Source of the DNA: an uncultured Gemmatimonadota bacterium
Lineage (GTDB): Bacteria; Gemmatimonadota; Gemmatimonadetes; Palauibacterales; Palauibacteraceae
Assembly: GCA_964465015.1 (NCBI GenBank)
Contig: CAYXHP010000022.1
Location: 1,704 to 65,703, forward strand
Direction of reading: 5' to 3'
Length of the DNA: 64,000 nt
A program made the translations under genes and the position numbers. Under the pieces are notes generated by a model. That model did no database searches, was not told where the DNA came from, and saw only the letters and a list, made by a program, of their open reading frames with translations. This document shows positions 11,748 through 36,861 of the stretch, piece after piece; positions within the stretch are counted from its first letter, which is position 1; every line of letters begins with the position of its first letter.

Positions 11748-11791
11748 GCAGCGGTCGAGGCAGGCGGGCGGGAGGGGCCGCCGGGTCGGAC

Positions 11792-14337: not shown

Positions 14338-14340
14338 TGG

Positions 14341-14799: not shown

Positions 14800-14810
14800 G
14801 AGTCTATAAC

Positions 14811-15236: not shown

Positions 15237-15238
15237 GC

Positions 15239-16816: not shown

Positions 16817-16817
16817 C

Positions 16818-17888: not shown

Positions 17889-17891
17889 GCT

Positions 17892-21421: not shown

Positions 21422-21497
21422 GACCGTCTCGGTCGCCGCTCGTGGCCGGAGGGCGTCCGGCCCGCGTGCTCACCGCCCCTCGCCGGAGAGATCCCTG

Positions 21498-22625
21498 ATG
21501 CGGATCGGCATCACCATGCTGAGCCACGATCCGACGTGGGGGGGCATAGGGGTCTACACGAGACAGGTCGTGAGGAACCTGCTCGCGGTCGACCCGGACG
21601 ACGAGTACGTACTGATCTACCCGCAATTCGGGCATTCGCGCGAGCACATGGGTGAGTACGAGGCCGCGCACGAGAACGTCACCGAGGTGGAGACGCGGCG
21701 CTCGCTCCACTGGACGACGTACTGGGACCAGGTCGTCGTGCCGGGGGTCGCCCGGGCCCACGAGGTGGACCTGCTGTTCAATCCGTTCTGGTCCGTGCCG
21801 GTCTTCGCCGATTACAAGACGGTGATGACGGTGCATGGAATCGATTCGCACGTGGTGCCCGAATCGCTGAGCCCGCGCGATCGCTTCGAATGGGCACTCC
21901 ACGCCCGCCTCTGGGTGCACCGCGCCGATGCCGTGATCTCGATCTCCGACATGATGACGCGGGACCTGGTCCGTTTCGATCATCTGCCGGTGGAGCGCAT
22001 TCGGAGGATCTATCATGGCTGCGGCGAGCATTTTAGACCGATCCGGGAGCGCGAGCTCCTCGAGGCGGCGCGTCGGCGATTTCGGTTGCCCGAGCGCTTC
22101 ATCCTCTTCGTCGGACGCCTGTTTCCGCAGAAGAACTTCCAGAACCTCCTGCGTGCCTTCCACGCCATTTCGGATCGGGTCCCGCACGCGCTCGTCGTGG
22201 TCGGCCAGCCGCGCTGGAAGTACGGTGACGACCTGCGGCTGGTACAGGAGTTGGGTCTGAAGCAACGGGTGCACCTCATGGACCACGTGGCGAACGAGGA
22301 CCTGCCCGCGCTCTACAGTCTGGCCGATTGTTTCGCTTTCCCCTCGCTCTACGAGGCGTTCGGTCTCGTGGGAGTGGAAGCCATGGCATGCGGATGTCCG
22401 GTGGCCGCCGCGCGCGCCGGCGCCCTTCCGGAGGTCCTCGGCGATGCGGCCGTGTTCTACGATCCCCAGGACGTGGACGAGATGGCCGAAAGGCTGCTGA
22501 CGGTGCTGTGCGACGAGTCCGAGCGGTCGCGGTGCATCCAGCGTGGTCTGGAGCGAGCCCGGGAGTTCACCTGGCGCCGGACGGCGACCGAGACCCTGCG
22601 GCTCTTTCGGGAGCTGGCCGGATGA
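21498..22625 (+). CDS. Family 4 glycosyltransferase.
   Basis: ATG 21498 after GGAGAG. MRIGITML N-terminus. C-terminal GT4 EX7E-like region (FPSLYEAFGLVGVEAMACGCPV). Confidence 0.8.
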   Translation: MRIGITMLSHDPTWGGIGVYTRQVVRNLLAVDPDDEYVLIYPQFGHSREHMGEYEAAHENVTEVETRRSLHWTTYWDQVVVPGVARAHEVDLLFNPFWSVPVFADYKTVMTVHGIDSHVVPESLSPRDRFEWALHARLWVHRADAVISISDMMTRDLVRFDHLPVERIRRIYHGCGEHFRPIRERELLEAARRRFRLPERFILFVGRLFPQKNFQNLLRAFHAISDRVPHALVVVGQPRWKYGDDLRLVQELGLKQRVHLMDHVANEDLPALYSLADCFAFPSLYEAFGLVGVEAMACGCPVAAARAGALPEVLGDAAVFYDPQDVDEMAERLLTVLCDESERSRCIQRGLERAREFTWRRTATETLRLFRELAG

Positions 22626-23911
22626 AGCGCTCGTTGGGATTCCGGGACTATGTCTGGCTCGGTCTGACCGTGCTCGCGCTCCTCGCAGCGGCCGGAGAGA
22701 TCACTCTCCGCCTGGTACCGAGCCTCAGCCCGATCGCCGACGCGGAAAGCCGCATGCGTCGCCTACGTCCGGACCGAACGCCGATCTCGCGCAGAATCAA
22801 GAGGCAGCTGGTCGCGGCTCCCGCACGGTACAGGGAGGATCCGTACCTGGGCGCTGTACTGGCTCCGTCGGAGCACGACACTTACCGCACCCCGGATTTC
22901 GACTGGTCATGGGGCACTGACAGTCTCGGATTCGTCAACCACGAGCCCTGGCCCGAGCACCCGGACGCCGTGGTGCTGGGCAGCTCCCTGGTGATGGCTC
23001 CAGGCGTCGGAATGGACGGGCGGTTCTCAACGGTCCTGGAGCGCCGTTTCGGTCGCGCCATACTGAACCTGGGGTCCCCGGGGGCCGGTACCGAAATGGA
23101 GGATCGGATCGAGCAGAAGTTCGCCGAGCCGCTACGGCCGCCGCTGGTGATCGATGCCCTCTGGTTGGCGAGCGACATCGACAACACGCTCGAGTTCCAC
23201 GACTGGCTGAAGGAAGAGCCAGGTGAGGCGTTCACCCCGTATCGCATGAGCTACTGGAACTCGCACTCAGCCGCTACGCCGCCTGCCCGGTTGGCGCGCC
23301 TGCTCGACCATTCTGCGCTGTGGAGAGCCGTCCACCTGTCCGTGAAGGCGCTCGCGATCCGACAGCACATCCGGGAGGCGGTACTGCTCCCGCATGGCGA
23401 CACGATCTTCCTGTCGGTCCGGGTGCAGCATCGCCTGGCCCTGGGCCTCGACCGCGGCCCCGAGCCCGACATGAAGGACATCTTCCTGGAGCCGCTCCAG
23501 CGAATGCAGCGGCGGATCGAGGCCAGGGGCGGCCGCTTCCTGGTCGTCCTGCTGCCCAGCAAGGAGGCCATCTACGGGGCGGCGGCGTACCCGGCCGTCA
23601 TGCGAGCTCTCCGGCAGACTCGCCAGGGCCTGGCCCGCAGGGGCATCCAGTACCTGGACCTCACCGATGTATTCCGGGCGGCAGGTCGGGAGCCATCCCC
23701 ATACTATCCGCTGGACATCCACTACACGCGCCTCGGCAACCAGCTCATCGCCGACGCGATCGCCGACTGGATCGTGGCGAACCGGGCATTCGGTGTGCCG
23801 GCCCCGGCCCACGGCAAGTCTGCGCCTCCGTCCACCTCTCAGGCAGGACGGACCACCCGGGGGACCGCGGCTTCCGTCACGCTGAGGAGGCCTCGAACCG
23901 AGGGGCGCTGA
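22622..23911 (+). CDS. Membrane-anchored SGNH-hydrolase-like protein (paralog 2 of 4).
   Basis: ATG 22622 overlaps the upstream stop (ATGA). TM LGLTVLALLAAAG. VVLGSSLVMAPGVG and DIHYTRLGNQLIA blocks. Collinear similarity with 9062..10267. Confidence 0.7.
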   Translation: MKRSLGFRDYVWLGLTVLALLAAAGEITLRLVPSLSPIADAESRMRRLRPDRTPISRRIKRQLVAAPARYREDPYLGAVLAPSEHDTYRTPDFDWSWGTDSLGFVNHEPWPEHPDAVVLGSSLVMAPGVGMDGRFSTVLERRFGRAILNLGSPGAGTEMEDRIEQKFAEPLRPPLVIDALWLASDIDNTLEFHDWLKEEPGEAFTPYRMSYWNSHSAATPPARLARLLDHSALWRAVHLSVKALAIRQHIREAVLLPHGDTIFLSVRVQHRLALGLDRGPEPDMKDIFLEPLQRMQRRIEARGGRFLVVLLPSKEAIYGAAAYPAVMRALRQTRQGLARRGIQYLDLTDVFRAAGREPSPYYPLDIHYTRLGNQLIADAIADWIVANRAFGVPAPAHGKSAPPSTSQAGRTTRGTAASVTLRRPRTEGR

Positions 23912-24005
23912 GGTCGCGGCTCATCTCAACACACGCTATGATGGTATACCCGTGCGAACCGCGCCTGTCGACGGTTCCACCTGTGCAGGAGCGTCGAGGT
24001 CGAGC

Positions 24006-24665
24006 ATGGATAGACGGTTGCGGACGCTCCTCCTCCTGGCGGCATCCGAGAAGTCCTATCTCTCGCGTATGGTGAGGCGCCTCAAACCTCGCGTCATCCC
24101 GGACGCGGACAAGCGACCGGAAGCCCAGGGTGATGGTCGCTATGCCGACCTCGAGAGCGGAGAAGAGGCTCGCTACGCCTTCGTCGCGGGGTACCTGAGC
24201 CAGGTGGGCGGCGATGGTTCTCCCTCGGTGCTCGACGTGGGTTGCGGTCCCGGTATCCTGCAGCCGTACCTGTCGCGGCACGGGTATGCACGCTACCTCG
24301 GGATAGACTTCGCTCCCAACAACATCGCCGTGGCCAGCCGCCGAGCCGACGAGAACACGAGCTTCGAACTGGCCCGGGCCACGGAGTATGAGCCGCTCGA
24401 CACCTTCGATCTCATCGTTTTCAACGAGATGCTGTACTTCCTCGACGATCCCGTCGGCTGCATTCGATCGTACATGCGGCATCTCGAGCCGGGAGGCCTG
24501 GTCGTCACCTCCAATACGATCGATTTCGCGACGCTGGGTCTCGTTCGCGCGCTTCGCACGAGTCTTCCCATCCTGGACGAGACCCTGGTCGTCAACGCGG
24601 CTGGATTCGGCTGGGTGATCCAGGCTGTCGGCGAGCGAAAGGGATCAGTCCTGGAGAGTCGCTGA
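24006..24665 (+). CDS. Class I SAM-dependent methyltransferase.
   Basis: Motif I VLDVGCGPG. Start taken at ATG 24006 (MDRRLRT). Upstream GTG 23952 lies in an AT-richer promoter-like stretch. The 3' end overlaps the convergent flippase gene by 21 nt. Confidence 0.7.
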   Translation: MDRRLRTLLLLAASEKSYLSRMVRRLKPRVIPDADKRPEAQGDGRYADLESGEEARYAFVAGYLSQVGGDGSPSVLDVGCGPGILQPYLSRHGYARYLGIDFAPNNIAVASRRADENTSFELARATEYEPLDTFDLIVFNEMLYFLDDPVGCIRSYMRHLEPGGLVVTSNTIDFATLGLVRALRTSLPILDETLVVNAAGFGWVIQAVGERKGSVLESR

Positions 24666-26243
24666 GCCGCCGGATACGGAGGCAGCCTCCTGCACCGCCC
24701 GGGCGCTCGGAATCACGAGGTCTTGAGCGTCGATTTCGCCCAGCAACCACAGCACTCCGAGATAGGCTGCGGCCAGCCCTGTGAGCTTCACGAGGACGAG
24801 CAGTCCCGACGTGTGCACGAAGATCGCCGGAACGGCCACCACGAGTGATGCGATCGCGACCCTGATCGATGTGCCGAGGGGAACGGGTGGCCCGAACTCG
24901 CGCCACGTCAGCACCGTGATTGTGACTCCGACGCCGAACATTCCGAGCATCAGCGAGAGAGCTGCGCCCATCGGGCCCATCGACGGAATCAGAAGGTAGT
25001 TCGCCAGGCCTACCACCGGCATGAAGGCGAGGAGGACGCCGGCCGTCGCACGCTGCCGGCCGGCAGCCATGAGACCGTAGGCCAGTGAGTCCAGGAGCGC
25101 GAACCATGCATAGGCGATCAGTTGCACGGTCAGGAAGATCCCTCCACTCGCGTAGTCGCTCGAGTAGACGAGGCTCATGAGGGAGGATGCGCTTCCCCCC
25201 AGGATGACCACCGCGGGAGCGCCCAGGATCAGGGAGAAGCGGCCCGCCTCGCGCACGTGCTCGTGTGCCCCTCTGCGGTTTCCCTCGGAGAGAGCCCAGG
25301 CGACAGAGGACAGCACGACGCCTGACTGGACGATGGGGATCACCGTCAGCATCTGGGAGATCTTGAGGGCTGCGACGTAGCGGCCGATGACGGCTGCGTC
25401 CCCGTGCCAGAGACTGCCCAGCGACCAGAGGTCGAGGCTCGTGAGGACGTTCAGACACACCACGAACATGCTGATCTGGCCTCCCAGGGAGACCACCTCG
25501 CGCATCAAGGACCACACCGGTCGAAAACCCTCCGGTGGGTATCGCACGACGAGGTAGAGGAGCGCGGCACAGGATGCCAGCACGTTGACCACGAGCGCGC
25601 GCCCGACCGACATCCCGAGGTAGACCAGCGCGATGGCTCCGAGGCACTTCGTCGCTCCCAGCAGCACCTGACTCGCCGCCAGGGGTCCGAATCGTCGACG
25701 TCCGTTGAGCGCCCCGGTGTATCCGGCGCAGGCAGCCGAGAAGGGAACATCCAGGAGGGCCAGGCGAAACAGGCGAGCGCCATCCGCGATGCCGAAGAGA
25801 TGGCCGAGCCGAGGCGCCAGGTACCACCCGATCGCAAAGACCAGGAGCGACGTCACGAGCAGCACGGCGCGCGCCGATTGCTCCACCTCCCTCGTCTGGG
25901 ACTGGTGATCGGGGATCAGCTTCCCCAGGGCTCCGGGTACGCCGATGAAGCTCAACATCTCCAGCCAGACGAGCACGGACAGCAGGAGGCCGTACACTCC
26001 GAAGGCCGCGGGCGCGAGGGTGCGGGCCAGTATCACGGAGCCCACATAGCTGAGCACCAGGAAGATGGCCCGCCCGACCAGCAGCTGTCGGGTTCCGCGC
26101 TTCTGGGTCAGCTGCGCCTCGTCTGGTGTGGACGAGCCGTCCGCCGCCCCGGTCATGCCGGGACTTTCGTCGGCCACGAGGTCTTTCACCTTCAGCTCCT
26201 GTTCATTCCGGACCGCATCGGCATGAACGCACCCGGCGCGCAT
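24645..26243 (-). CDS. Polysaccharide biosynthesis flippase (Wzx-like, MOP/oligosaccharidyl-lipid flippase family).
   Basis: About 12-14 TM helices. Conserved flippase-like layout. Start could be the internal ATG at 26156 (MTGAADG ...); the first 29 codons have somewhat lower GC3. Confidence 0.75.
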   Translation of the reverse strand: MRAGCVHADAVRNEQELKVKDLVADESPGMTGAADGSSTPDEAQLTQKRGTRQLLVGRAIFLVLSYVGSVILARTLAPAAFGVYGLLLSVLVWLEMLSFIGVPGALGKLIPDHQSQTREVEQSARAVLLVTSLLVFAIGWYLAPRLGHLFGIADGARLFRLALLDVPFSAACAGYTGALNGRRRFGPLAASQVLLGATKCLGAIALVYLGMSVGRALVVNVLASCAALLYLVVRYPPEGFRPVWSLMREVVSLGGQISMFVVCLNVLTSLDLWSLGSLWHGDAAVIGRYVAALKISQMLTVIPIVQSGVVLSSVAWALSEGNRRGAHEHVREAGRFSLILGAPAVVILGGSASSLMSLVYSSDYASGGIFLTVQLIAYAWFALLDSLAYGLMAAGRQRATAGVLLAFMPVVGLANYLLIPSMGPMGAALSLMLGMFGVGVTITVLTWREFGPPVPLGTSIRVAIASLVVAVPAIFVHTSGLLVLVKLTGLAAAYLGVLWLLGEIDAQDLVIPSARAVQEAASVSGGSATLQD

Positions 26244-26363
26244 CCAACGTGGGTGATGGCTCGGGGGTGGCTCCGCGTTTCGTGGTGCGGCGGCCCGCGC
26301 TCTGCCGCGCCCGGAAGGGAGCTAAGTGGGAGAAGGGAGTGACCGCTTCATGAACTCCCGGGG

Positions 26364-27893
26364 TCATTCGGGGCTCTGGTCCAGCCAGTATCGCCACAGA
26401 TCGCAGACGTCGTCGAGGCTCTCGAATACATGACCGTGTCGACTCGGTATCATCTTGAGGAACCAGGAGGCCTTCCCGGCCAGGGATGGATCGCAGAATA
26501 CCAGGACGGAGCCGTCGCCGTGAAGGACCGATCGGATGAGGGACCACAGCAGCCGGGGGGTGGGCCGGTCCGCGAGGGAGATTCGCAGGCGCGGCTCGCG
26601 CACGTCCGAAAGATCGGTGGGGGGCTCGCCAACGGCAACGACGTCCAGTCGGGCGTTCGGAAACAATCTCGCCAGCAGTCGGATCTGTTCGGAGAGATCG
26701 CGGACCCGATGCCCGATCAGAAGAGTGAGACGGCGTAGGCGTGCCCGGCGCTCGAACAGGTTCCTCGCGATCTCATCGACCGGCGCTCGAGGCCTTGCTC
26801 TGAGCAGCACGAGGGGAGCGTGCGGAAGATCCGGTGGACGCTTCAGCTGCCACAGCGTCTCCGTGTAGCCTCCATCGTTGCCGGAGGTCGCACGCGCGTA
26901 GCCCTCGATGATCGGCCGTAGCGTTCCCGGCTCGAACTGGGATGCGTAGATCCTCAGACACTCAAGCTTGTCCTCGAGTACGCGGCCCACCCCGAAGGTG
27001 CGCCGCTCGAGGACAGCGCCCCGGCGGCGGAGCAGCTCCACGACCGCGTTCGCGGTACCGGGATGCTCCTCCGCGTACGGGAGGTCCTCGTACAACATGA
27101 CCTTCCTGGTCGCGAGCTCGCTCCAGTGCTCGGAAGCGAGCTGAAGGCCTGCGTCTCTCGTCAGCCGGTGGTCGAAGTGGTTGCCGAGTCCGAGCGGAAG
27201 CCAGACTTCGTCCGCCGAGGTCTCCAGAATCCACGACCCGAGCCGCTCCGAGATCCGCTCGACTTCCGCGCGAGACGGCGGTGCGTGTCGGTACATGCTC
27301 TGTCGCTTGAGGGTCGCCCGGATATCGCCGGTGAGGTACCGATCCGGGTCGATGTAGCGGATCGTGACATCGGGCTCTTCGAGCGTGTGGTAGCGGGCCT
27401 GCAGGAACCGCGCGGCGAGCATCGACTCCTGCCTTCGAAGAGCGGTGATCCGGTCCACGTCGAAGTCGCCGACCTCCGGGTCCGCCAGATAGAACGTCGC
27501 GTTGGAGCGTGACACCACGGAGAGGACGTGTATGCGCGCGGCACCGCGTCTGAGGAGGAGCGTGCCCCCGGCGCTGAGTGCCACGTCGTCCGGGTGCGGC
27601 TCGATCGCGAGGACGCTCGGACCGGCATCCGGAAGGGTCGGTGGAACCAGCGTCACGACTCCCGCCGCCCACAGTCGGGCGAGTGCCTTCACTCCCGATG
27701 CGCCCGGCAGGAGGGATCGAATGTCGCGGCTACCGTCGAGTGCGGTGAGGACCTCGAGAAGCGCCGGTCCGGCATCGAGCACGGGTCGCCGCGCCTCGAG
27801 AAAGAAGATGGCGTCGCCCCGTACCCTGAAGTGTGGAAGCCTGCACGGGATCCAATCCGGGTGCGCCTCCACGAAGGCGCGCCGTCGGTCCAT
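26364..27893 (-). CDS. PIG-L/LmbE-family N-acetylglucosaminyl deacetylase domain protein with a ~200-aa C-terminal extension of unknown function.
   Basis: PIG-L signature IEPHPDDVALSAGGTLL. Start chosen at Met86 of ORF 26364..28148 (MDRRRAFVEAHPDW) because the first 85 codons are Arg-rich read-through. Confidence 0.65.
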   Translation of the reverse strand: MDRRRAFVEAHPDWIPCRLPHFRVRGDAIFFLEARRPVLDAGPALLEVLTALDGSRDIRSLLPGASGVKALARLWAAGVVTLVPPTLPDAGPSVLAIEPHPDDVALSAGGTLLLRRGAARIHVLSVVSRSNATFYLADPEVGDFDVDRITALRRQESMLAARFLQARYHTLEEPDVTIRYIDPDRYLTGDIRATLKRQSMYRHAPPSRAEVERISERLGSWILETSADEVWLPLGLGNHFDHRLTRDAGLQLASEHWSELATRKVMLYEDLPYAEEHPGTANAVVELLRRRGAVLERRTFGVGRVLEDKLECLRIYASQFEPGTLRPIIEGYARATSGNDGGYTETLWQLKRPPDLPHAPLVLLRARPRAPVDEIARNLFERRARLRRLTLLIGHRVRDLSEQIRLLARLFPNARLDVVAVGEPPTDLSDVREPRLRISLADRPTPRLLWSLIRSVLHGDGSVLVFCDPSLAGKASWFLKMIPSRHGHVFESLDDVCDLWRYWLDQSPE

Positions 27894-28009
27894 TTCGGGC
27901 TCCGACGCGCCGGCTTGCGAGGCACGGGCTCGGGGCTCCCGTTCGACCTCCGGCAGCTCGCGATCGGACGGGTCCGGAGAGATCTCGATCCGTGGCAAGC
28001 GAGTGTTCC

Positions 28010-29620
28010 TCAGTTCGGCCGCCGCTTCAGGTGATCGGCCAGCCTCAGGGCCAGCGCGACGATCGTGAGCGTCGGGTTCTTGTGACTGGCAGACGGGAAG
28101 ACGGAGCTGCCCGCGACGTAGAGGCCGTGCACGCCGTGCACCCGACACTCCGTGTCGACGACCCCCGTCCGCGGACTGACGCTCATTCGCGTCGTGCCCA
28201 TGTGGTGCGACGCGTCCGTGAACATCAACTCCCCGGTTCCCGGGTCCAGCTCCCCGAGACCGGTCCTCTCGAGGCGCTGCTGTAGCACTGCCTGCAGGCG
28301 ACGCGCCGACCTGGCTACCTCACTGGCGATCTTCCAGTTCAGCACGAGCCGGTTCGCCCCGAGGGCATCACGCTCCCGCGAGAGGGTCACCCGGCTCTCC
28401 GGATCCGGCGGTTGCTCGCAGAAGTACACGACGACCCGGTCTCGCGCACTGCGGCCCGCGGTCAGCGCCTTCCGCGCGTGCCAGTACGCCCGGTAGAGGC
28501 CGTGCGGGACGAGCTCGCGGGGAGTGAGCAGGTAGAGAAGACCCGCGATGTCTCCCATGTCGGCGCCACCAATCTCCCATCGCCGTCCCGCGTGCCCCCG
28601 TCTCAGGAGCACCTTCATCGTTCGGATGAAGGACTGATAGCCCTTCTCCGTGTACTCCGAATGCTCCACCTCGAGCGTGGCGTAGTGATCGAGCAGCCCC
28701 TCCGTTCGTTGCACGTGGCGCGACAGCCCCAACCCGAACTGAACGCTGCCCTCGGAGATCGGGCAGCCTTCGAGCAGCGACAATCGCACCCCCTCGCGGA
28801 GACGCACTTTCCCGAACACGGCCCTTGGATGGTCCATGAAGTAGCGTCCCACCACGTCGTAGCGATTCCCGATGCCGCACTCCTGTCCATCACGTGAGAG
28901 CAGGAGGAGCCGTGGATTCTCCAGTCCACCACAAGCCAGCACCACGACCCTGGCCCGCACGCGGAGGTGGTTACGGCCGAGTGTGGCCGCCTCGACCGAC
29001 TCGACCGACGTACCCTCGGGATTGAGATGCACCTTGATGGCGTTGGCGTGGAGCACGAGCCTGGTGGTACGTGAGCTCCGCAGGGCCGACTTGTGCGCCG
29101 CGCCGAAGCGCTTCGGTCTCCTGGCCCACAGAGAGACGGTCGGATCGATCGCTTCGCCCCCGTACAGCGCCCGTTCGCCCGCGCTCAGGGCGTCCTCGTG
29201 GCGTCCCTCTTCGAACTGGTCGAAGGCCGGCAGCCCCAATATCCGCGAGGCCCTGGGGTAGTACGCGAGCAGCTCCGAGTAGGGAATGGGCCACCCGCTG
29301 TCGGGCACCCAGCTTCGCGGCTCCAGGTCTCGAGGCAGGAACCGCATGCTCCTGCCGGCCCAGAGATTACAGCTACCGCCGTAGTAGCGCGCTCGGGACA
29401 TGAAGTTACGACGAATCGGATATCCACGACTGTCGAGGTCGTGGAGGACCTGCGTGGCCTGCTCCGGCTGGAACCCACCTCCTTCCAGTACGCACACCTC
29501 GCGTCCGGAACGTTCGAGCTCGCCGGCGATCGTCAGGCCCGCGGCGCCGGCGCCGACCACGCAAACGTCCGCCGTGAGCTCGACATCCGGCTCGAGGTCG
29601 CGGGCGTCCAGAATGGTCAC
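28010..29620 (-). CDS. GMC-family FAD-dependent oxidoreductase (choline dehydrogenase-like).
   Basis: FAD-binding ADVCVVGAGAAGLTIAGELERSG. C-terminal GMC block GTTRMS ... HGVHGLYVAGSSVFPS. GTG start 29620 overlaps the stop of the upstream GH1 gene (GTGA). The N-terminal 350 aa of the long ORF were rejected. Confidence 0.8.
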   Translation of the reverse strand: MTILDARDLEPDVELTADVCVVGAGAAGLTIAGELERSGREVCVLEGGGFQPEQATQVLHDLDSRGYPIRRNFMSRARYYGGSCNLWAGRSMRFLPRDLEPRSWVPDSGWPIPYSELLAYYPRASRILGLPAFDQFEEGRHEDALSAGERALYGGEAIDPTVSLWARRPKRFGAAHKSALRSSRTTRLVLHANAIKVHLNPEGTSVESVEAATLGRNHLRVRARVVVLACGGLENPRLLLLSRDGQECGIGNRYDVVGRYFMDHPRAVFGKVRLREGVRLSLLEGCPISEGSVQFGLGLSRHVQRTEGLLDHYATLEVEHSEYTEKGYQSFIRTMKVLLRRGHAGRRWEIGGADMGDIAGLLYLLTPRELVPHGLYRAYWHARKALTAGRSARDRVVVYFCEQPPDPESRVTLSRERDALGANRLVLNWKIASEVARSARRLQAVLQQRLERTGLGELDPGTGELMFTDASHHMGTTRMSVSPRTGVVDTECRVHGVHGLYVAGSSVFPSASHKNPTLTIVALALRLADHLKRRPN

Positions 29621-30918
29621 GGGCGCGCGGCTCCTTCCGCGCCGCCCGCATGCCCGCCGCGTCGTGCGGAGCCAGCGGTCGACGGATGGGCCACTCCGAG
29701 CTCCGGACTTCGGCAGATGACGCCGAAGCGATCGACTATGGGACGGGCGGTCCTCCGCTGGGTGGCGAAGTCGACGCCGAAGAGTCCGAATCGCGGCGCA
29801 GTGCCGAGGGTCCACTCGTAGTTGTCCATCAGGGACCAGTAAAAATAGCCGCGTACGTCGACCCCCTCCTCCAGGGCTCGGGCCACGGCCTGTACATGGT
29901 CCACCAGGAACCGGGTTCTCAGCTCCTCGTCCGTCGTTGCGACACCGTTTTCGGTGATCAGAATCGGAACACCGTAGCGGGAGAATCGGTCGAGCGTGGT
30001 GAACAGCCCGTCCGGGTAGATCTCCCAGCCCATATCGCTGCGGGCTCCGCGGTCCGCGTGGTGGTCGGCCGTGCACTCGGTGCCCGCGAACGGTATCACC
30101 CCACGCCCCCGTCCGCTGACGATCGTCCGGGTGTAGTAGTTGATTCCCAGGAAGTCGAAGGACGGCTCGGGGCCCGCTCCCAGCAGACGGAAGAAGGCTC
30201 GGTTGAGGACCGCATCCCTGGTCCACGCCGCCAGCCTGTCCCGCGGGCTCGACGGATCGCATGGCTGGATCAGGGGAGCGCTGTGAGCGAAGCCGACCTT
30301 CGCGCTCGGGTCGGCGGAGCGCACCTTCGAACGGGCCGCCCGATGGGCGCGGGCCAGATGGATCGCCGCCCGAACGGCCCCTCCCCACGCCCTGCCGCGG
30401 CAGGGCGGCCAGTCGCCGACGACGTAGCCGTGTTTGACGTATACCGTAGGCTCGTTGATGGTGACCCAGTACCGGACCTTCCCGGCGAGCCGATCGGCCA
30501 GTCGGTCCACGAAACGCGCGAACAGGCTCACCGTCTCGCCTCGAGCCCACCCTCCTCTCTCCGCCACCCACGAGGGGAGGGTGAAGTGGAAGAGCGTCGG
30601 AACCGGCTCGAGCCCCCGGGCGAGAAGCGAATCGATCACGGCCTCGTAGTGATCGATCGCGTGACGATTCCACGACCCTTCGACGGGCTCAATTCGGCTC
30701 CACTCGATGGAGAAGCGATGAGCATTGTGGCCCGCTGCCAGGGCGAGATCGAAGTCGGAGTCGAAGAGCTCGAAGTGTCGGCACGCCGCACCCGACTTCT
30801 CGGGGAGCCTCCCCGCCTGCTCGTAGGCCCACCAATCGTTCCACCGGTTGGCCCCTTCGACCTGGTGGCTGGACGTGGCTGCCCCCCAGAGGAAGTCCTG
30901 GGGAACGGCGATCCGCAT
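29617..30918 (-). CDS. GH1-family beta-glucosidase.
   Basis: Starts MRIAVPQDFLWGAATSSHQVEGA. NEP acid/base TINEPTV and nucleophile ITENG motifs. Start at Met106 of ORF 29617..31233. Confidence 0.85.
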   Translation of the reverse strand: MRIAVPQDFLWGAATSSHQVEGANRWNDWWAYEQAGRLPEKSGAACRHFELFDSDFDLALAAGHNAHRFSIEWSRIEPVEGSWNRHAIDHYEAVIDSLLARGLEPVPTLFHFTLPSWVAERGGWARGETVSLFARFVDRLADRLAGKVRYWVTINEPTVYVKHGYVVGDWPPCRGRAWGGAVRAAIHLARAHRAARSKVRSADPSAKVGFAHSAPLIQPCDPSSPRDRLAAWTRDAVLNRAFFRLLGAGPEPSFDFLGINYYTRTIVSGRGRGVIPFAGTECTADHHADRGARSDMGWEIYPDGLFTTLDRFSRYGVPILITENGVATTDEELRTRFLVDHVQAVARALEEGVDVRGYFYWSLMDNYEWTLGTAPRFGLFGVDFATQRRTARPIVDRFGVICRSPELGVAHPSTAGSARRGGHAGGAEGAARP

Positions 30919-30997
30919 CGCCGTGCTCCCGAGCGCTGAGTTCAGGGCAGCCGGACAGTCGGCGGCGGGGGAAGGCGAGGTGACGGGCATTCGCACG

Positions 30998-32131
30998 TCA
31001 ATGGGAAAGTCCGCCGAGGCCATATTGCCCGGCGTCACGTTCGATCCGCGCCAGGACGGCGGCGGCAATGACACGGTATCCGGCCGCATCGGGATGACCA
31101 TCGACCTGGAAGAAGAGTCGCTTCTCCTGTCGGGCCTGCTCCTGCATGGGACCCGTGAGATCCAGATAGGGAATGCCCCGGCTGCGTAGTGCCTCGACCA
31201 GCGACGGGAGCAGCGGAGGGACCGTGTCTCCACGGAGCGGGAGGTACACGTCCTCCTTGGTCGGAAACACCAGGACGAGAAACGCCGTGCCGTGACTGGC
31301 TGCGATGGCCTGCGTCTTCTCGATGGATTCCATGACGCTCTGGAAGACGGGCTGATCCGGCTTGGCCAGCCCCACCTGATTCTCCAGGAACGAAGGCGCG
31401 AAGATGAGGCGGGTGTGGTCGGGAAACTCCATGGGTGGCGTGCTTCGGAACCGTCTCCTCAGGGTGCGGAAGGTCTCCGCCACGAACCAGTACACGTACG
31501 ATCGCTCGAGAATGGACTGCAGGAGACTGGGTGATCTTCCGTGACGGAACTTCCAGGTCGCGTAGCGTCCCGGACGGCCGGCGCGGAGCCAGCGATCGAA
31601 CTCCTGTTCGTCCTGCAGGTCGTTGCCCGGGAACAGTCCGAAGAGAAGGAGCTTGGGCTGAAAGGCCGTCCCGTACCGTTCGTAGACTCTCAAGTACTGC
31701 TTGGGCGCGTAGCCGGGCAGGCTCAGGTTGACGAGGCGGATGCCGGGGAGAGCTTCCTCGACGAGCGTCGACCACGTGGAATCGTAGTCCACGCCATAGC
31801 CGAAGCCCTCGGAGTCTCCGATCACGACGATCCCGGCCGAATCCGGCAAGGGGGATGGATTACGGAATCCGAGGGAGTCGGTCGCGTAGTCGAAACGTAC
31901 GTCGCCAGCGACTACCCGGCCGTGGTGATTGGGCGGATACAGGTAGCCAACATACGGGTCCGCTCTCTCGACATCGTCGTTGTCCTTCATCCAGTGGATC
32001 TTCACCCGTGCGGAGGCGGGCAGGTTGTTCGGGAACTCCCGAAGGAAGGCTTCCGTGCAGGCGAGTATGACGAGGACGCTGGCCAGAAGCAGTCCGAGAT
32101 TGACGAGGATGCGTTTCGCGGTCGAGGGCAT
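30998..32131 (-). CDS. Membrane-anchored SGNH-hydrolase-like protein (paralog 3 of 4).
   Basis: Start at internal ATG (MPSTAKRILVNLGLLLASVLVIL, a signal anchor). GDS block VVIGDSEGFGYG. DGHP block QVDGHPDAAGYRVIA. Confidence 0.7.
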   Translation of the reverse strand: MPSTAKRILVNLGLLLASVLVILACTEAFLREFPNNLPASARVKIHWMKDNDDVERADPYVGYLYPPNHHGRVVAGDVRFDYATDSLGFRNPSPLPDSAGIVVIGDSEGFGYGVDYDSTWSTLVEEALPGIRLVNLSLPGYAPKQYLRVYERYGTAFQPKLLLFGLFPGNDLQDEQEFDRWLRAGRPGRYATWKFRHGRSPSLLQSILERSYVYWFVAETFRTLRRRFRSTPPMEFPDHTRLIFAPSFLENQVGLAKPDQPVFQSVMESIEKTQAIAASHGTAFLVLVFPTKEDVYLPLRGDTVPPLLPSLVEALRSRGIPYLDLTGPMQEQARQEKRLFFQVDGHPDAAGYRVIAAAVLARIERDAGQYGLGGLSH

Positions 32132-32339
32132 CTTCCATCTCTGTCCGGGGCCGTGGCGAAGGCCTGAGGCTTCCCCCTGAAGACGGTTGCTCATACGACT
32201 GGGTCCTGCAGGTTGAATGCCGGACCAAAGTGAGGGATGAAGGCGGACGCGGCCATGCCGCGCGAGGAGTCCGGGCCGCGGCATCGGCAGCGTGCTTCTG
32301 AACTCGGGAGGTGCGGGGACGACGGACCTCGGTGCTCCA

Positions 32340-33869
32340 TCAAGCCTTGGGTCGAGGCGAGAGCGGTCGCGTGTCGTCGGCGTGCGACACTCGGTGTGTC
32401 GCCGCATCCCCACGTGCCGACGGGGTCGACGAGACGTGGGGTGCAGTCCGGCCTCCCGGCTCGAGCGGCACGGCGCGCGCGGGTCTCCAGAGACCATCGC
32501 GAGCGATGGCCTGGACCGAGAGGCTGGCGGCCAGGCGCTGTCCCGCATTGCTCCAGTGATCGTTACCGCCTCGGAGATAGAGCGCGGCCGGATCGTGCGA
32601 CCGGAAGGCCGGGAACAGGTTCAGGGTCGGGATGGAGTCCTGCCGGCCTATGGCTTCGACCACTGCCGACAGGTTGGACCTCTGGTAGGCCGGGTAGAGG
32701 GACGAGTCGACCCGGTAGACGTAGCCCGGCACCTCGTCCTCGGCCGTCGGGATGATCAGCAGGAGCATCGGGATCCCGTGGCTCCGAACCACGCTGTCCA
32801 TTCGGGTGATGACCCGATCCATGAGGGTCACCTTGTACCGGGCCGATGGTCCGTCCGGCGCCGCGCTGACGTCGGCATCGTAGCCGTCGGCGAGCAGGTT
32901 CGTGACCACATCGTCGTGTCCGAGGACGTAGTCCCGGTACTCGGCCTCGCGATCTCGCATCCACTCCCGGGTGGTCGTGGCGGAGGCCGGGTTGCCCTCG
33001 ACGGGAACCTCGTCGCCCTCCGGCACGAACCGGCTCGATTCGAGGCGGTCCACGGTGCGCTCGAACAGCTTCAGGACCAGCGGCCCGTGTCGCGCCATCA
33101 GGAACTTGCGGCGAACGGACCCGGCCAGCCTGTAGTGGTTCCGAACCAGCCGGCCCCCGGAGTCCAGTCGGAAGAGCTTGTTCCGGAGGAGGTCGCCGAA
33201 GTCGTTGCCGGTGTAGATGCTGACGATGACGAGGTCGGGCTTGAGCCGCGTCAGATCGCGCTCCATTCGGATGCACTCTTGATCGGGACCGTAGCCGGTC
33301 ACCCCAGCGTTCACGACCTCGACTGGCGTGCGGAAGTAGGCCCCGAGCATGCGCTGGAGCTGGCTCGTGTAGGTGTCGGCCTCAGCGGAGTACTCCGCGG
33401 CGATGAACGAGTCGCCGAACACCACGACCCGTCGTGAGCTGTCTGCCGACCCGCGCAGCTCGGGTCCGCGGAAGCCTTGCCGGTCGATGTGCACGCGGAT
33501 CGTCTGGCCGCCGTTGATCGGCAACCGATGATAGTCCCGGCTGGCCGCCGGTATGTACTCGAACAGGTCGTCCGACCGCAGCCGGAAGAGCGTGGAGAAG
33601 TCGTCGGGGACCGTGAGGCGGAGTCCGATTTCGGCGATCACCAGACCGATCAGGGACGAAGCGGTGAGCAGCAGCAGCCGCGTTCTCCACTTGCTGGACG
33701 CCAGGCCCGCGGCCACGACCACGGCGCCGAAGGCTGCCACCAGGATCTGAGACCATCCGGGACCGGATCGCTGAGGGCTCGATGGGCAGACGGTGACAGC
33801 GACCACGAGGACCAGCATCCCGAAGATGCCGAGGGCTATCCTGGTCGCCGGCCTCCGCTCCTGTTCCAT
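32340..33869 (-). CDS. Membrane-anchored SGNH-hydrolase-like protein (paralog 4 of 4) with a 3-TM N-terminus.
   Basis: Start at internal ATG (MEQERRPATRIALGIFGMLVLVV), with GGAGG 6 nt upstream on the minus strand. GDS block VVVFGDSFIAAEY. GGNDHWSNAG (DxxH). Confidence 0.65.
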   Translation of the reverse strand: MEQERRPATRIALGIFGMLVLVVAVTVCPSSPQRSGPGWSQILVAAFGAVVVAAGLASSKWRTRLLLLTASSLIGLVIAEIGLRLTVPDDFSTLFRLRSDDLFEYIPAASRDYHRLPINGGQTIRVHIDRQGFRGPELRGSADSSRRVVVFGDSFIAAEYSAEADTYTSQLQRMLGAYFRTPVEVVNAGVTGYGPDQECIRMERDLTRLKPDLVIVSIYTGNDFGDLLRNKLFRLDSGGRLVRNHYRLAGSVRRKFLMARHGPLVLKLFERTVDRLESSRFVPEGDEVPVEGNPASATTTREWMRDREAEYRDYVLGHDDVVTNLLADGYDADVSAAPDGPSARYKVTLMDRVITRMDSVVRSHGIPMLLLIIPTAEDEVPGYVYRVDSSLYPAYQRSNLSAVVEAIGRQDSIPTLNLFPAFRSHDPAALYLRGGNDHWSNAGQRLAASLSVQAIARDGLWRPARAVPLEPGGRTAPHVSSTPSARGDAATHRVSHADDTRPLSPRPKA

Positions 33870-34024
33870 GCAGCCTCCGGAAATCTCGGGTTTGCCATCC
33901 TCCGGCCGTGACTTCCCGTGCATGCATGCAGCGTGCGAGTCTCGGTCCAGGCCGGTCCCGATCCGAGAGGGGAGGCGTCGCCGACGGCGCGGCCATCCGC
34001 AGACCCCAAGTGACATAACGAGAA

Positions 34025-34040
34025 GGGCACATTCCGTGCG
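34025..34040 (+). promoter_or_regulatory. Candidate sigma-54 -24/-12 promoter in the divergent intergenic region upstream of the carbamoyltransferase operon.
   Basis: gGGCACattccGTGCg with GG-N10-GC spacing. Sits 300 nt upstream of ATG 34341 in an AT-richer 470-bp gap. A sigma-70-like TTGAAA-N16-TAGATA (34162..34189) is also present. Confidence 0.35.
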
Positions 34041-34340
34041 GCTGTGGCCGGCCCGACTCGGCTGTGCCGGTCGCAGCGGATGGCGGTGTGCGGCTCCGGC
34101 GTCTGTTGCAATGTGCCTACAAGATCGGCAGACCGCCGCGGCGAGCCCCGAACGCAGGACTTTGAAAAGCTATTCATCCCAACTAGATACGCTCATCACC
34201 TGTTGGACGGAGGAATGGCGTACTTATCTTGCACAGCGTGGCTGCCCGAGAAGAACGCGCGGCCGGCCGCCGTGCGAAATCACGCTGATCCGTTCGGCGC
34301 ACGTGTGGCCCCGGCGAGGGTTCAGGAAGGACGTTCATAC

Positions 34341-36308
34341 ATGGCTTCAGACCTTTCGATGCAGACCCGGCATTCCTCCGGGAGCGCCGGCTCGCCCGGC
34401 AGCCCGCGCTACGTTCTGGGCCTGTCGGCCTTCTACCACGACAGCGCCGCGTGCCTGCTCCGGGACGGGGAGATCGTGGCCGCTGCTCAGGAGGAGCGCT
34501 TCACGAGAGAGAAGGGAGACGCCTCGTACCCTTCCCACGCCGTGGAGTATTGCCTGAAGGAAGGCGGCATCTCGGTCGCCGATCTCGAGGTCGTCGCTTT
34601 CTACGACAAGCCGCTCCTGAAGTTCGAGCGAATCCTGGAGACGTATGTGGGCATCGCTCCCAGGGGCTTCCGCTCCTTCCTGAAGGCGGGACCGCTGTGG
34701 ATCAAAGAGAAACTCTTCATCGACCGCGACCTGGCGGACCAGCTGGGCTGGGAGGGCGACATCCTCTACGCCGAGCATCACGAGTCCCACGCGGCCAGCG
34801 CATTCTACCCGTCACCGTTCGACGAAGCCGCGATCGTCACGATGGACGGCGTCGGCGAATGGGCCACTGCGTCCATCGGAGTGGGGCGGGGCAGCGAGAT
34901 CGAGCTCCTGCGGGACCTTCGGTGGCCCGACTCCCTGGGACTGCTCTACTCGGCCTTCACGTACTACACGGGCTTCAAGGTCAACTCGGGCGAATACAAG
35001 GTGATGGGGCTGGCGCCTTACGGCGAGCCCAGGTTCGTCGACCTCATCCTCGGCGAGCTGATGGACTTGCGCGACGACGGCTCCTTCCGGTTGAACCAGG
35101 AGTACTTCGACTACCTGGGCGGACTGACGATGACGAGCCGCAAGTTCGATGAGCTGTTCGGTGGCCCGCCGCGTTCGCCCGAATCGAAGATCACGCAGCG
35201 GGAGATGGACCTGGCCCGATCGGTCCAGGAGGTGTGCGAGGAAGTCATGCTCCGGATGGTACGCACCGCGCACCGTGAGACCGGGCTGTCGAACCTCTGC
35301 CTGGCGGGCGGGGTGGCGCTGAACTGCGTGGGGAACGGCCGCATCCTCCGGGAAGGGCCTTACGAGGAGCTGTGGATCCAGCCGGCCGCCGGCGATGCCG
35401 GAGGCGCGCTGGGCGCGGCGCAGCTCGCGTGGCACCGCCACCTGGGGCAGGAGCGCGCGCCGGCCTCCGTGTACGCGGTGAGTGCCGGCGCGGTCGAAGA
35501 GCGGCAAGTCGCCGAGGCCGGCGGTGGCACCGCGGTGGCGACGCGCCCGCGGGCCCGGGACCGGATGCGAGCCGCCTGCCTGGGCCCCTCCTTCAGCCCT
35601 GAAGAGATCGAGACCTATCTGGCGACGCGCGGCGCACCCGCCCACAAGCTCGATCGCGAGGCGTTGATCGAGCGGACCGCGGAGCTCCTCTCAGACGGCA
35701 ACGTGGTGGGCTGGTTCGCCGGCCGCATGGAGTTCGGGCCACGTGCCCTGGGATCGAGGAGCATCCTGGGCGACCCGCGAAGCCCCGAGATGCAGCGCAC
35801 GATGAACCTCAAGATCAAGTTCAGGGAGAGCTTCCGTCCATTCGCGCCGAGCGTCTTGCTGGAGCGGGTCCAGGACTACTTCGACCTGGATCGTGAGTCT
35901 CCCTACATGCTCCTGGTCGCGCCCGTGCGCGAGGAGCGCAGGTGTCCTCCGGCGGAGGGCGACTCGGAGCTGTGGGGCATCGAGCGACTGAATCGCCCAC
36001 GCTCGGACATCCCCGCCGTGACGCACGTGGACTACTCGGCTCGCGTGCAGACCGTCTCGGCGGAAGACAACCCGGCCTACCACGCTCTCCTGTCCGCCTT
36101 CGAGCGGCGCACGGGATGCGGCTTGCTCGTGAACACATCGTTCAACGTGAGGGGCGAACCGATCGTCTGTTCGCCTCGGGACGCGTATCGCTGCTTCATG
36201 CGGACGCACATGGATTGCCTGGTCCTGTGGCCGTACCTCCTCTTCAAGGAGGAGCAGCCGGAATGGCACGAGGAGGGAGATTGGAGAGAGAAGATACCGC
36301 TCGACTGA
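34341..36308 (+). CDS. Carbamoyltransferase (NodU/CmcH family; probably O-carbamoylation of a sugar).
   Basis: RBS AGGAAGGA then ATG 34341. Carbam_trans_N (VLGLSAFYHDSAACLL ... HHESHAASAF) and C-terminal domain. The first 99 codons of ORF 34044.. have non-coding character. Confidence 0.85.
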   Translation: MASDLSMQTRHSSGSAGSPGSPRYVLGLSAFYHDSAACLLRDGEIVAAAQEERFTREKGDASYPSHAVEYCLKEGGISVADLEVVAFYDKPLLKFERILETYVGIAPRGFRSFLKAGPLWIKEKLFIDRDLADQLGWEGDILYAEHHESHAASAFYPSPFDEAAIVTMDGVGEWATASIGVGRGSEIELLRDLRWPDSLGLLYSAFTYYTGFKVNSGEYKVMGLAPYGEPRFVDLILGELMDLRDDGSFRLNQEYFDYLGGLTMTSRKFDELFGGPPRSPESKITQREMDLARSVQEVCEEVMLRMVRTAHRETGLSNLCLAGGVALNCVGNGRILREGPYEELWIQPAAGDAGGALGAAQLAWHRHLGQERAPASVYAVSAGAVEERQVAEAGGGTAVATRPRARDRMRAACLGPSFSPEEIETYLATRGAPAHKLDREALIERTAELLSDGNVVGWFAGRMEFGPRALGSRSILGDPRSPEMQRTMNLKIKFRESFRPFAPSVLLERVQDYFDLDRESPYMLLVAPVREERRCPPAEGDSELWGIERLNRPRSDIPAVTHVDYSARVQTVSAEDNPAYHALLSAFERRTGCGLLVNTSFNVRGEPIVCSPRDAYRCFMRTHMDCLVLWPYLLFKEEQPEWHEEGDWREKIPLD

Positions 36309-36685
36309 CGCCGACCGAGGGGCGCAAGTTCGGCCTGACGGTCGGTGCCGCCTTCCTGGTCCTGGGAGGCATATCCTACTGGCGCGGCCACCGAATCCCC
36401 GTGTTCGTCCTCGGCGGTCTCGGCCTGCTCCTCGTGCTCGGCGGCCTGGTCGTGCCAGGTCGGCTCGGGCCCGTCGAGCGCGCCTGGATGGGCCTGGCGA
36501 AGGCGATCTCACGGGTCACCACGCCCATCTTCATGGCGGTCGTATACTTCCTGGTCCTCACGCCGGCCGGTGTCATCGTCCGTTGGGTTGGACACGACCC
36601 GCTGCTGCACGAGGCGGAAGAGGGAAGCTACTGGAGGTCGCGCTCCATGTCGGAAGGCAAGAGCGACCTCACGCGACAGTTCTAG
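36263..36685 (+). CDS. SxtJ-like small membrane protein.
   Basis: EGRKFGLTVGAAFLVLGGISYW and two more TM helices, typical of the SxtJ family that co-occurs with carbamoyltransferases. Start uncertain: ATG 36263 overlaps the upstream gene by 46 nt. Confidence 0.55.
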   Translation: MARGGRLEREDTARLTPTEGRKFGLTVGAAFLVLGGISYWRGHRIPVFVLGGLGLLLVLGGLVVPGRLGPVERAWMGLAKAISRVTTPIFMAVVYFLVLTPAGVIVRWVGHDPLLHEAEEGSYWRSRSMSEGKSDLTRQF

Positions 36686-36702: not shown

Positions 36703-36861
36703 ATGGCTCGACGTTCGATGGCGGGCGAGATTTGGGACTTCCTGAAGGTTCGCAAGAAGTGGTGGCTCCTGCCCATCATTGTCATGCTCGCGGCGGTGGG
36801 CGCGCTGATCGTGTTCGCGCAGGGCTCGGCGCTGGCGCCGTTCATCTACACGATCTTCTAG
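36703..36861 (+). CDS. DUF5989-like small membrane protein (52 aa).
   Basis: MAGEIWDFLKVRKKWWLLPIIVMLAAVGALIVFAQG is the conserved small protein found after carbamoyltransferase and SxtJ. RBS GGAGCG. Internal Met of ORF 36583..36861. Confidence 0.6.
   Translation: MARRSMAGEIWDFLKVRKKWWLLPIIVMLAAVGALIVFAQGSALAPFIYTIF

Follow-up and report, generated by a model that had tools for sequence, protein, structure and literature searches.

A stretch of 64,000 nt from an uncultured Gemmatimonadota bacterium (contig CAYXHP010000022.1; hereafter the window, at its full length) carries six consecutive minus-strand genes at 24645-34016, which encode two SGNH proteins, a GH1 beta-glycosidase, a GMC oxidoreductase, a PIG-L-type deacetylase and a Wzx-type flippase. 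We found that the GH1 and GMC genes are the evolutionary core of this segment, forming a translationally coupled, cytoplasmic pair that recurs in an uncharacterised gene cluster. In Gemmatimonadota, the pair stands in a collinear SGNH(A)-SGNH_B-GH1-GMC-Wzx series, divergent from a cassette that encodes a carbamoyltransferase, an SxtJ-family protein and a DUF5989 protein. The enzyme families involved are all known; it is their arrangement, and the cluster as such, that are uncharacterised. The PIG-L gene, which an initial annotation of this DNA had joined to GH1 and GMC in a trio, does not belong to the recurrent unit.

Six minus-strand genes with one coupled junction

Families were assigned to the open reading frames (ORFs) of the window with Pfam and NCBIfam profiles at their curated cut-offs, and all six ORFs described in the initial annotation proved to be present at their positions and in their families (Pfam). 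The window has a G+C content of ~68%, and codon-position G+C backs six consecutive minus-strand genes in this segment. Gene starts were chosen by ribosome-binding site (RBS) support, which shortened every maximal ORF and gave products of 509 (SGNH_A), 398 or 377 (SGNH_B), 433 (GH1), 536 (GMC), 509 (PIG-L) and 514 aa (Wzx). Independent gene calls on identical DNA (Logan contig L001) gave the same models for GH1, GMC and SGNH_A, at 433, 536 and 509 aa, respectively. The segment reads as follows:

33870..34340, no strand: divergent intergenic region between SGNH_A and the carbamoyltransferase gene (from gene starts)
32340..33869, minus: SGNH_A, SGNH/GDSL protein, AlgX-related (maximal ORF 32340..34016; Pfam, gene caller)
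30998..32194, minus: SGNH_B, AlgX/SGNH protein (alternative start 32131; maximal ORF 30998..32548; Pfam)
29617..30918, minus: GH1 beta-glycosidase (maximal ORF 29617..31233; PF00232, 273.1 bits, E 4e-81)
28010..29620, minus: GMC FAD oxidoreductase (PF05199 and PF00732)
26364..27893, minus: three-domain PIG-L/LmbE deacetylase (maximal ORF 26364..28148; PF02585)
24645..26189, minus: Wzx-type flippase (maximal ORF 24645..26243; PF13440 and PF01943)

With the RBS-guided starts, the gaps along the series are about 150-208, 79, -4, 116 and 120-174 nt, so that tight coupling is confined to the GH1-GMC junction and the remaining junctions span 79-208 nt. At the coupled junction, the stop-start GTGA that had been pointed out earlier can be read directly at 29620-29617, where the GMC start codon GTG (29620-29618) overlaps the GH1 stop codon TGA (29619-29617); GGAAGGAG lies 9 nt 5' of this GTG. 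That the six genes form one operon is plausible. A consensus scan of 24000-34600 for sigma-70-like promoters and terminators gave no excess over shuffled expectation and no promoter consensus in the divergent region 33870..34340, which leaves a single transcript unproven, and an Rfam scan of the whole window placed no RNA element within 24645-34016. Because SGNH_B-GH1-GMC-Wzx collinearity recurs in independent genomes, we judge this gene order to lie far beyond chance.

The GH1-GMC pair recurs with glycan-assembly genes and largely without PIG-L

To examine conservation, we ran an alignment scan for GMC with one genome per species, which gave 71 loci, 63 of them with an orthologous GMC, and compared all window proteins with these loci by tblastn. 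The 71 loci come from Gemmatimonadota, Steroidobacteraceae, Geminicoccaceae, other Alphaproteobacteria, Eisenbacteria and Thermodesulfobacteriota, with a few distant outliers. The recurrent cluster that emerged comprises the glycosyltransferase (GT) genes GT2a, GT4a and GT4b, a protein with four transmembrane (TM) segments, two AlkP-family proteins flanking a Gfo/Idh/MocA protein, AsnB and usually Wzx, and further includes GMC, GH1, SGNH_B and the carbamoyltransferase-SxtJ-DUF5989 cassette. The expectation that GH1 and GMC lie beside glycan-assembly genes and Wzx elsewhere was thus borne out in many genomes.

In at least 29 of the 63 orthologous loci, GH1 is no more than 10 kb away from GMC, and in ~25 loci it is found directly upstream. 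The identical 4-nt GH1/GMC overlap is present in at least 15 loci, in both Gemmatimonadota and Geminicoccaceae, and also in locus L161 (our locus numbers are used where loci must be told apart). The pairing spans Gemmatimonadota, Geminicoccaceae and other Alphaproteobacteria; in Steroidobacteraceae, GH1 is found elsewhere in the same cluster. Of the orthologous loci, 26 are flanked on each side by 8 kb or more; in these, the window genes are present, at 40% identity or above, as follows:

Gfo/Idh/MocA: 20 of 26 loci
AlkP-2: 19 of 26
AlkP-1: 16 of 26
GH1: 15 of 26
AsnB: 15 of 26
SGNH_B: 11 of 26
carbamoyltransferase: 8 of 26
Wzx: 7 of 26, more at lower identity
PIG-L: 1 of 26
methyltransferase (NodS-like): 1 of 26
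SGNH_A: 0 of 26

The proposed GMC-GH1-PIG-L trio did not hold as a conserved unit: PIG-L stands near an orthologous GMC in a single locus (1/63) and is absent from the closest relatives, and an orthologue of the NodS-like methyltransferase occurs only in that PIG-L-bearing locus (1/63). The only other PIG-L-bearing genome has no GH1 in the ~30 kb around, and the GMC adjoining its PIG-L gene is a 31%-identical paralogue. In the closest relative of the window locus (L159, GMC 68% identical), the order is SGNH_A, SGNH_B, GH1, GMC and Wzx, the last after a 5-nt gap, followed by a GT4 gene, with no PIG-L; in L160, GMC and Wzx overlap by 4 nt. From these comparisons, we take the conserved unit to be SGNH-GH1-GMC-Wzx.

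The carbamoyltransferase adjoins GH1-GMC-SGNH_B in Gemmatimonadota and Geminicoccaceae. In the latter, the pair retains the carbamoyltransferase-SxtJ-DUF5989 cassette and SGNH_B, and the AlkP/Gfo block is not found within 10 kb. By tblastn, SxtJ and DUF5989 were detected together in 14 further loci, and DUF5989 without SxtJ in two more; besides the window, loci with the cassette are L004, L006, L012, L030, L043-L050, L056-L058, L068, L159 and L160. The divergent carbamoyltransferase/SGNH layout of the window is seen also in L004, L006, L057, L058 and L159. The cassette thus travels with GH1-GMC across phyla.

Some variants of the cluster also carry sulfotransferase genes (PF00685/PF13469), at 7770-8675 in L158 and at 12746-13897 and 17940-18836 in L161, which suggests a sulfated version of the product in these variants.

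A BGPh-like GH1 of a cluster-specific subclade

The GH1 protein scores 273.1 bits against PF00232 (cut-off 22.6). Its N-terminus is MRIAVPQDFLWG, with the catalytic domain starting at residue ~5, and it shows neither a hydrophobic segment by hydropathy nor an N-terminal extension in the orthologue alignment, so GH1 is predicted to be a cytoplasmic protein without a signal peptide. The catalytic glutamates E156, in TINEP (NEP), and E323, in ITENG (ENG), are invariant among the cluster orthologues, as are the glycone-binding residues Q19, H111, N155, Y262, W361, E368 and W369. Judged from these active-site residues, the enzyme is catalytically intact.

GH1 falls below the equivalog of canonical BGL enzymes, TIGR03356 (309.9 bits against a cut-off of 478.5, with the match in two stretches), and belongs to the short, BGPh-like GH1 clade rather than to TIGR03356 BGL. 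By far the best solved relative is BGPh of Pyrococcus horikoshii (PDB 1VFF; E 3e-105, 45% identity over 395 aligned positions), with which it shares a single alignment of ~405 residues, the short ~420-aa format and both catalytic glutamates. BGPh is described in PMC4687101, which cites Matsui 2000 and Akiba 2004, as an enzyme without a signal peptide that is membrane-associated and favours long-alkyl beta-glucosides; a BGPh reference is also given in PMC12369401. Such action on lipid-like glucosides would fit processing of a lipid-linked intermediate by the window GH1. Unlike the window GH1, BGPh is archaeal, and no glycan-assembly cluster is reported for it.

As a reverse control, we ran a GH1-anchored metagenome scan, which serves as a negative control and not as a census: among the 80 matches listed, 78 were at most 47% identical and had no cluster genes nearby. 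In a neighbour-joining (NJ) tree, all 29 cluster-linked bacterial copies, together with one 57%-identical short contig, lie on one side of a single split, set apart from 72 other relatives and 1VFF on the opposite side. The split and the reverse control together argue that the cluster association is specific to one GH1 subclade.

Cultured carriers are few and include Geminicoccaceae bacterium 1502E (L034) and Marinimicrococcus flavescens YIM 152171 (L056). In the latter, at 8723-9610, the GH1 frame stops early, giving 295 aa and a 390-nt gap to GMC. Either a pseudogene or a faulty assembly may account for this short frame.

A GMC oxidoreductase outside the characterised subfamilies

The GMC protein matches PF05199 (GMC_oxred_C; 88.8 bits, cut-off 24.6) and PF00732 (GMC_oxred_N; 32.1 bits, cut-off 23), and carries the FAD motif GxGxxG as GAGAAG at residues 23-28. 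The His pair H472-H473, within SHHMGTTRM, does not vary among 25 homologues and corresponds in the alignment to the NH site of the glucose dehydrogenase (GDH) alpha subunit. The catalytic domain starts at residue ~17, and the protein has no hydrophobic segments and no N-terminal extension in orthologue alignments, which points to a cytoplasmic enzyme without a signal peptide. The absence of signal peptides from both GH1 and GMC, already supposed in the initial annotation, is thus upheld by hydropathy and by the orthologues.

Against the NCBIfam equivalogs, GMC stays far under every cut-off (MftG, 61 against 387 bits; pyranose oxidase, 57 against 545) and, by these cut-offs, fits no characterised subfamily among choline dehydrogenase, MftG, pyranose oxidase and cholesterol oxidase. 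A homologue search gave 1,941 scored matches, the top ones at 54-68% identity and the named ones mostly from Gemmatimonadota. The best PDB matches, which are weak and patchy (E 1e-31 at best), are to FAD-GDH alpha (6A2U/8HDD), the large subunit of fructose dehydrogenase (FDH; 7W2J), LivQ (7DVE) and pyranose oxidases. These share with the window protein an FAD-binding N-terminus and a C-terminal GMC domain with a catalytic His, and all oxidise hydroxyls of sugars or glycosides; LivQ, the 6'''-hydroxyparomomycin oxidase, oxidises a C6-OH on a glycoside. Unlike the GDH and FDH subunits, the window GMC has no adjoining cytochrome or small-subunit partner gene, and the Cys-rich 3Fe-4S motif that, to our knowledge, marks those subunits is not evident in it. 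It further differs from these sugar oxidases in being predicted cytoplasmic and in its coupling to GH1 and a flippase.

Membrane-anchored SGNH/AlgX proteins and the flippase

Upstream of the pair, SGNH_A (PF13472, 47.4 bits, cut-off 32.9) starts at an ATG at 33869 that is preceded by GGAGG, and has hydrophobic helices at residues 11-29, 40-58 and 65-83. Its family is widespread, with 293 homologues at 35-49% identity, and the closest relative, L159, has a copy. SGNH_B (PF16822, 35.1 bits, cut-off 26.5) has a single TM anchor, and its orthologues (33-56% identity) adjoin GH1/GMC or the carbamoyltransferase in many loci. The GDS block I motifs of the SGNH proteins are VVFGDSF and VVIGDSEG. Basic residues before the hydrophobic helices of SGNH_A and SGNH_B place the catalytic domains outside the membrane, and the SGNH_A catalytic domain is predicted to be periplasmic. 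As for their description as two paralogues, both are present, yet they are only distantly related (27% identity over 175 aa). The window holds four membrane-anchored AlgX/SGNH paralogues in all (9032-10267, 22328-23911, 30998-32194 and 32340-33869), with mutual identities of 27-36%. In two of these four, the block-I serine motif reads GSS or GNS instead of GDS.

The flippase matches PF13440 (Polysacc_synt_3, 59.5 bits) and PF01943 (48.7 bits) of the MOP superfamily. It has ~13 TM segments by hydropathy, within the 12-14 expected, and on these features we assign it as a Wzx-type flippase. Its GTG at 26189 is preceded by AGGAG.

The PIG-L fusion is a rare accessory

The PIG-L protein (PF02585, 46.7 bits, cut-off 28.2) retains the HPDD and HxDH motifs, with H100, D102, D103, H239, D241 and H242 invariant among homologues, and is cytoplasmic. 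At 509 aa, it exceeds the usual single-domain format of ~220-300 aa by extra domains at both ends. Its AlphaFold2 model (pLDDT 80.7, pTM 0.83) comprises an N-terminal beta3-alpha3 domain of ~92 aa, a core at ~93-355 and a C-terminal alpha/beta, Rossmann-like domain at ~385-509 (~125-130 aa; five-fold beta-alpha). The extension previously proposed therefore exists, but as these two domains and not as a single C-terminal domain of ~200 aa.

In Foldseek searches with the whole protein, only the PIG-L core was matched, by Dbv21/Orf2* at E 3.5e-13 and with probability 1.0 to Dbv21, Orf2* and MshB. The core is thus closest by fold to glycoconjugate GlcNAc deacetylases, the best being glycopeptide pseudoaglycone deacetylases. 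It shares the Zn motifs with its LmbE/PIG-L relatives (Dbv21, Orf2*, MshB, chitobiose deacetylase; TM-scores up to 0.74, target-normalised), but differs from them in its 509-aa length and two added domains. A GT4 gene lies directly upstream of PIG-L in loci L156, L157 and L158, a pairing that resembles the GT4/deacetylase pairing of the MshA/MshB type.

Of the added domains, the C-terminal one (window 26364-26771, residues ~375-509) had four matches in an exhaustive HMMER search of 1.84e9 representatives, and Foldseek of the isolated domain against PDB returned nothing significant, the fold being Rossmann-like in a generic way only; this domain is essentially an orphan. Pfam searches with the parts of the protein on either side of the core gave no matches at E values up to 10. 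The topology of the N-terminal 92 aa, read from predicted secondary structure only, may recall PqqD/RRE domains.

A word-indexed search gave 12 PIG-L homologues, all ~500 aa long. Close orthologues (52-56% identity) belong to this cluster family as well, with Wzx, a GMC and AlgX/SGNH proteins nearby, and distant fusion homologues (~33% identity) lie in unrelated neighbourhoods. In the window, the gene sits between GMC and Wzx, and it is absent from L159 and L160. With GMC set directly against Wzx in the closest relative, PIG-L is taken to be a late insertion between these two genes in the window lineage; a repeat search around the gene for insertion scars gave short, chance-level repeats only. 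The PIG-L fusion is thus a rare accessory that co-occurs with the NodS-like methyltransferase.

The surrounding exopolysaccharide island

The six genes lie within an exosortase-type exopolysaccharide (EPS) island. Its exosortase matches TIGR02602 (152.4 bits, cut-off 105.55); among the subtypes, the XrtA model TIGR03109 scores 165.4 against a cut-off of 208, and XrtD scores higher and is likewise under its cut-off. An XrtA-system polysaccharide deacetylase is present (TIGR03006, 335.1 bits, cut-off 276.2), together with a Wza-like exporter, a FemAB-like protein, a DegT aminotransferase, an ATP-grasp protein, several GT4s, two AsnB-type amidotransferases, Wzy_C and two further AlgX-like paralogues. 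The features nearest the six genes are listed below; coordinates in the assembly block are maximal-ORF approximations.

10512..21421, plus: assembly block of GT2a, GT4a, GT4b, 4-TM protein, AlkP-1, Gfo/Idh/MocA, AlkP-2 and AsnB
14338..14799, plus: 4-TM protein, 153 aa, no family
14810..16816, plus: AlkP-1, AlkP family PF01663 (Pfam)
16764..17888, plus: Gfo/Idh/MocA (Pfam)
17889..19502, plus: AlkP-2, AlkP family PF01663 (Pfam)
19490..21421, plus: AsnB (Pfam/NCBIfam)
21351..22625, plus: GT4c, first gene of a variable block convergent on Wzx
22328..23911, plus: AlgX-like protein, same variable block
23952..24665, plus: NodS-like methyltransferase, same variable block
34341..36308, plus: NodU/CmcH-type carbamoyltransferase (Pfam, gene caller)
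36263..36685, plus: SxtJ-family small membrane protein (Pfam)
36703..36861, plus: DUF5989 small membrane protein (Pfam)

In its exosortase, Wza-like exporter, XrtA-system deacetylase, AsnB-type amidotransferases, FemAB-like protein, GT4s, Wzx and Wzy_C, the window resembles Wzx/Wzy-dependent exosortase (PEP-CTERM/EpsH) EPS loci, reportedly those of Haft et al. 2006. It departs from them in that the conserved block, in other genomes, has no visible exosortase within 10 kb. Within the sub-block 14338-19502, all products look soluble except the 4-TM protein; NCBIfam matched neither the AlkP proteins nor the 4-TM protein, and AlkP-2 had no match among PDB sequences. A GPI-like pathway tied to the exosortase (GT4, PIG-L and AlkP-type transferases) was considered and dropped, because PIG-L lacks conservation and both AlkP proteins look soluble. 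Keyword searches of the literature found no description of the GH1-GMC pair, the AlkP-Gfo-AlkP triad or the carbamoyltransferase-SxtJ-DUF5989 cassette.

A proposed editing step and its alternatives

The explanation of the whole segment that we favour, and to which we give about even odds, is that of a mosaic, Wzx-dependent glycan-assembly segment in an exosortase EPS island, with the GH1-GMC pair as a core that edits a lipid-linked glycan. GH1 and GMC would act on a lipid-linked oligosaccharide at the cytoplasmic face, right before its export by Wzx. GMC would oxidise a sugar hydroxyl, plausibly a primary C6-OH, to an aldehyde or uronate, which the AsnB amidotransferase of the cluster could amidate, and the BGPh-like GH1 would trim or proofread the membrane-bound intermediate by cleaving off a beta-linked hexose. 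GT4c, the PIG-L fusion and the NodS-like methyltransferase may form an optional module, in which GlcNAc would be added and then de-N-acetylated, with perhaps N-methylation of the amine. After flipping, the anchored SGNH/AlgX-like proteins would O-acylate or de-acylate the glycan in the periplasm. The idea of a processed lipid-linked intermediate, as first put forward, thus survives in part: the predicted cytoplasmic location of GH1 and GMC, their conservation with Wzx and the 1VFF relative speak for it, but PIG-L is not part of the unit, and the full 'deacetylate, oxidise, trim' chemistry is inferred.

A broader claim, which we advance tentatively as a possibility, is that GH1-GMC(-Wzx) represents a previously unrecognised cytoplasmic 'oxidise-and-trim' step on a lipid-linked glycan directly ahead of flipping, the signature of an uncharacterised ~13-gene pathway for a heavily decorated glycoconjugate in Gemmatimonadota, Steroidobacteraceae and Geminicoccaceae, with plug-in modules. 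The orphan-domain PIG-L fusion with the NodS-like methyltransferase would be one such module, and the carriers would be largely uncultured.

Several points weigh against editing of a lipid-linked glycan by the pair. In about half of the loci, no GH1 was detected at up to 10 kb from GMC, a figure limited by flank length, and the 79-208 nt gaps leave room for separate transcripts. The nearest solved GMC relatives oxidise free monosaccharides, and we know of few precedents for a cytoplasmic glycosidase in a biosynthetic route. Lastly, the conserved core showed no priming phosphoglycosyl transferase (PGT), Wzy or chain-length regulator, so a polymer product is not proven and a glycolipid product stays in play.

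That product could be a small secreted or membrane glycolipid, or a decorated oligosaccharide, exported by the MOP protein, with GH1 and GMC acting on an amphiphilic product, in logic akin to Nod factors or aminoglycoside-type pseudo-oligosaccharides. We consider this rather unlikely. The core does have three GTs and many tailoring enzymes, and neither a priming PGT nor Wzy, Wzc or Wza turned up in the conserved block; its families parallel small-glycoside pathways (NodU-like, NodS-like, PIG-L, LivQ-like GMC, Gfo/Idh/MocA); BGPh-type GH1 favours alkyl glycosides; and the neighbours of the cluster in L160 and L161 are unrelated housekeeping genes, not export machinery. However, the window block is embedded in an exosortase EPS island that also has Wzy_C, an XrtA-system deacetylase and a Wza-like exporter, several periplasmic AlgX-like proteins are of a kind typical of polymer acylation, and acyltransferase or lipid-synthesis genes were not seen in the core. 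It is unlikely, too, that the pair performs salvage, hydrolysing stalled or mis-built lipid-linked intermediates, recycling the carrier lipid and oxidising the freed sugar without adding any feature to the product. Its coupling to a flippase, predicted cytoplasmic location and frequent position at the cluster edge would suit such a role, as would the oxidation of free glucose or fructose by the nearest solved GMC relatives and the apparent truncation of GH1 in the cultured Marinimicrococcus locus, which suggests that GH1 is dispensable. Yet the overlap and the active sites are strongly conserved across distant lineages, arguing for a core role, and we know of no precedent for a dedicated glycosidase-oxidase salvage pair.

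Two further explanations are far less probable. An obligate three-step pathway of PIG-L, GMC and GH1 (deacetylate, oxidise, trim), conserved beside Wzx, draws on three proteins that are predicted cytoplasmic, lie on one strand beside Wzx and look catalytically intact, and on close PIG-L orthologues that are always in this cluster family, near GMC and Wzx. The distribution makes it very improbable: PIG-L accompanies an orthologous GMC in one locus of 63 and is missing from the closest relatives, and the other PIG-L genome pairs it with a paralogous GMC and has no GH1 in the ~30 kb examined. Equally remote is the reading of GH1 and GMC as ordinary beta-glucoside-scavenging genes present in the locus by accident. 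Both families are mostly catabolic, and neither protein reaches a specific NCBIfam equivalog cut-off; nevertheless, the tie to assembly genes is kept in several lineages, the GH1s linked to the cluster group in a subclade of their own, the relatives at 47% identity or below among the matches listed lack cluster neighbours, and no sugar transporter or catabolic regulator adjoins the pair in the window, L159, L160 or L161.

Glycosidases and flavin oxidases are usually read as catabolic, whereas here the pair is tied to a flippase and glycan assembly, in distant, mostly uncultured carrier lineages of soil and sediment. If the pair does edit during biosynthesis, it would represent a new kind of reaction in Wzx-dependent polysaccharide or glycolipid assembly, point to a heavily decorated surface glycan, bearing carbamoyl, amide, acyl and sometimes sulfate groups, among abundant phyla of soil, and give annotation pipelines a marker pair. 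If it serves salvage or quality control instead, it would still make a small and testable example of carrier-lipid recycling. The rare PIG-L protein, with its three domains, contributes an orphan domain.

Additional observations

In the complete Geminicoccaceae genome AP024683.1 (L068, 11600-13750; 72% GC), a gap of ~2.2 kb between GMC and the carbamoyltransferase holds no convincing ORF, all long frames giving Arg/Pro-rich nonsense; there seem to be similar ORF-poor gaps in other Geminicoccaceae loci. Elsewhere in the window, a 734-aa ORF at 56142-58346 (minus) fuses a Gfo/Idh/MocA domain to an NAD-dependent epimerase/dehydratase domain. The window also contains two c-di-GMP-I riboswitch aptamers (RF01051) on the plus strand, at 50519-50609 and 51728-51816, with scores of 67.6 and 78.2 bits (gathering score 35). 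A gene for a Big_2/Big_1 Ig-like repeat protein (51944..54016) follows ~130 nt downstream of the second aptamer, inside the exosortase EPS island.

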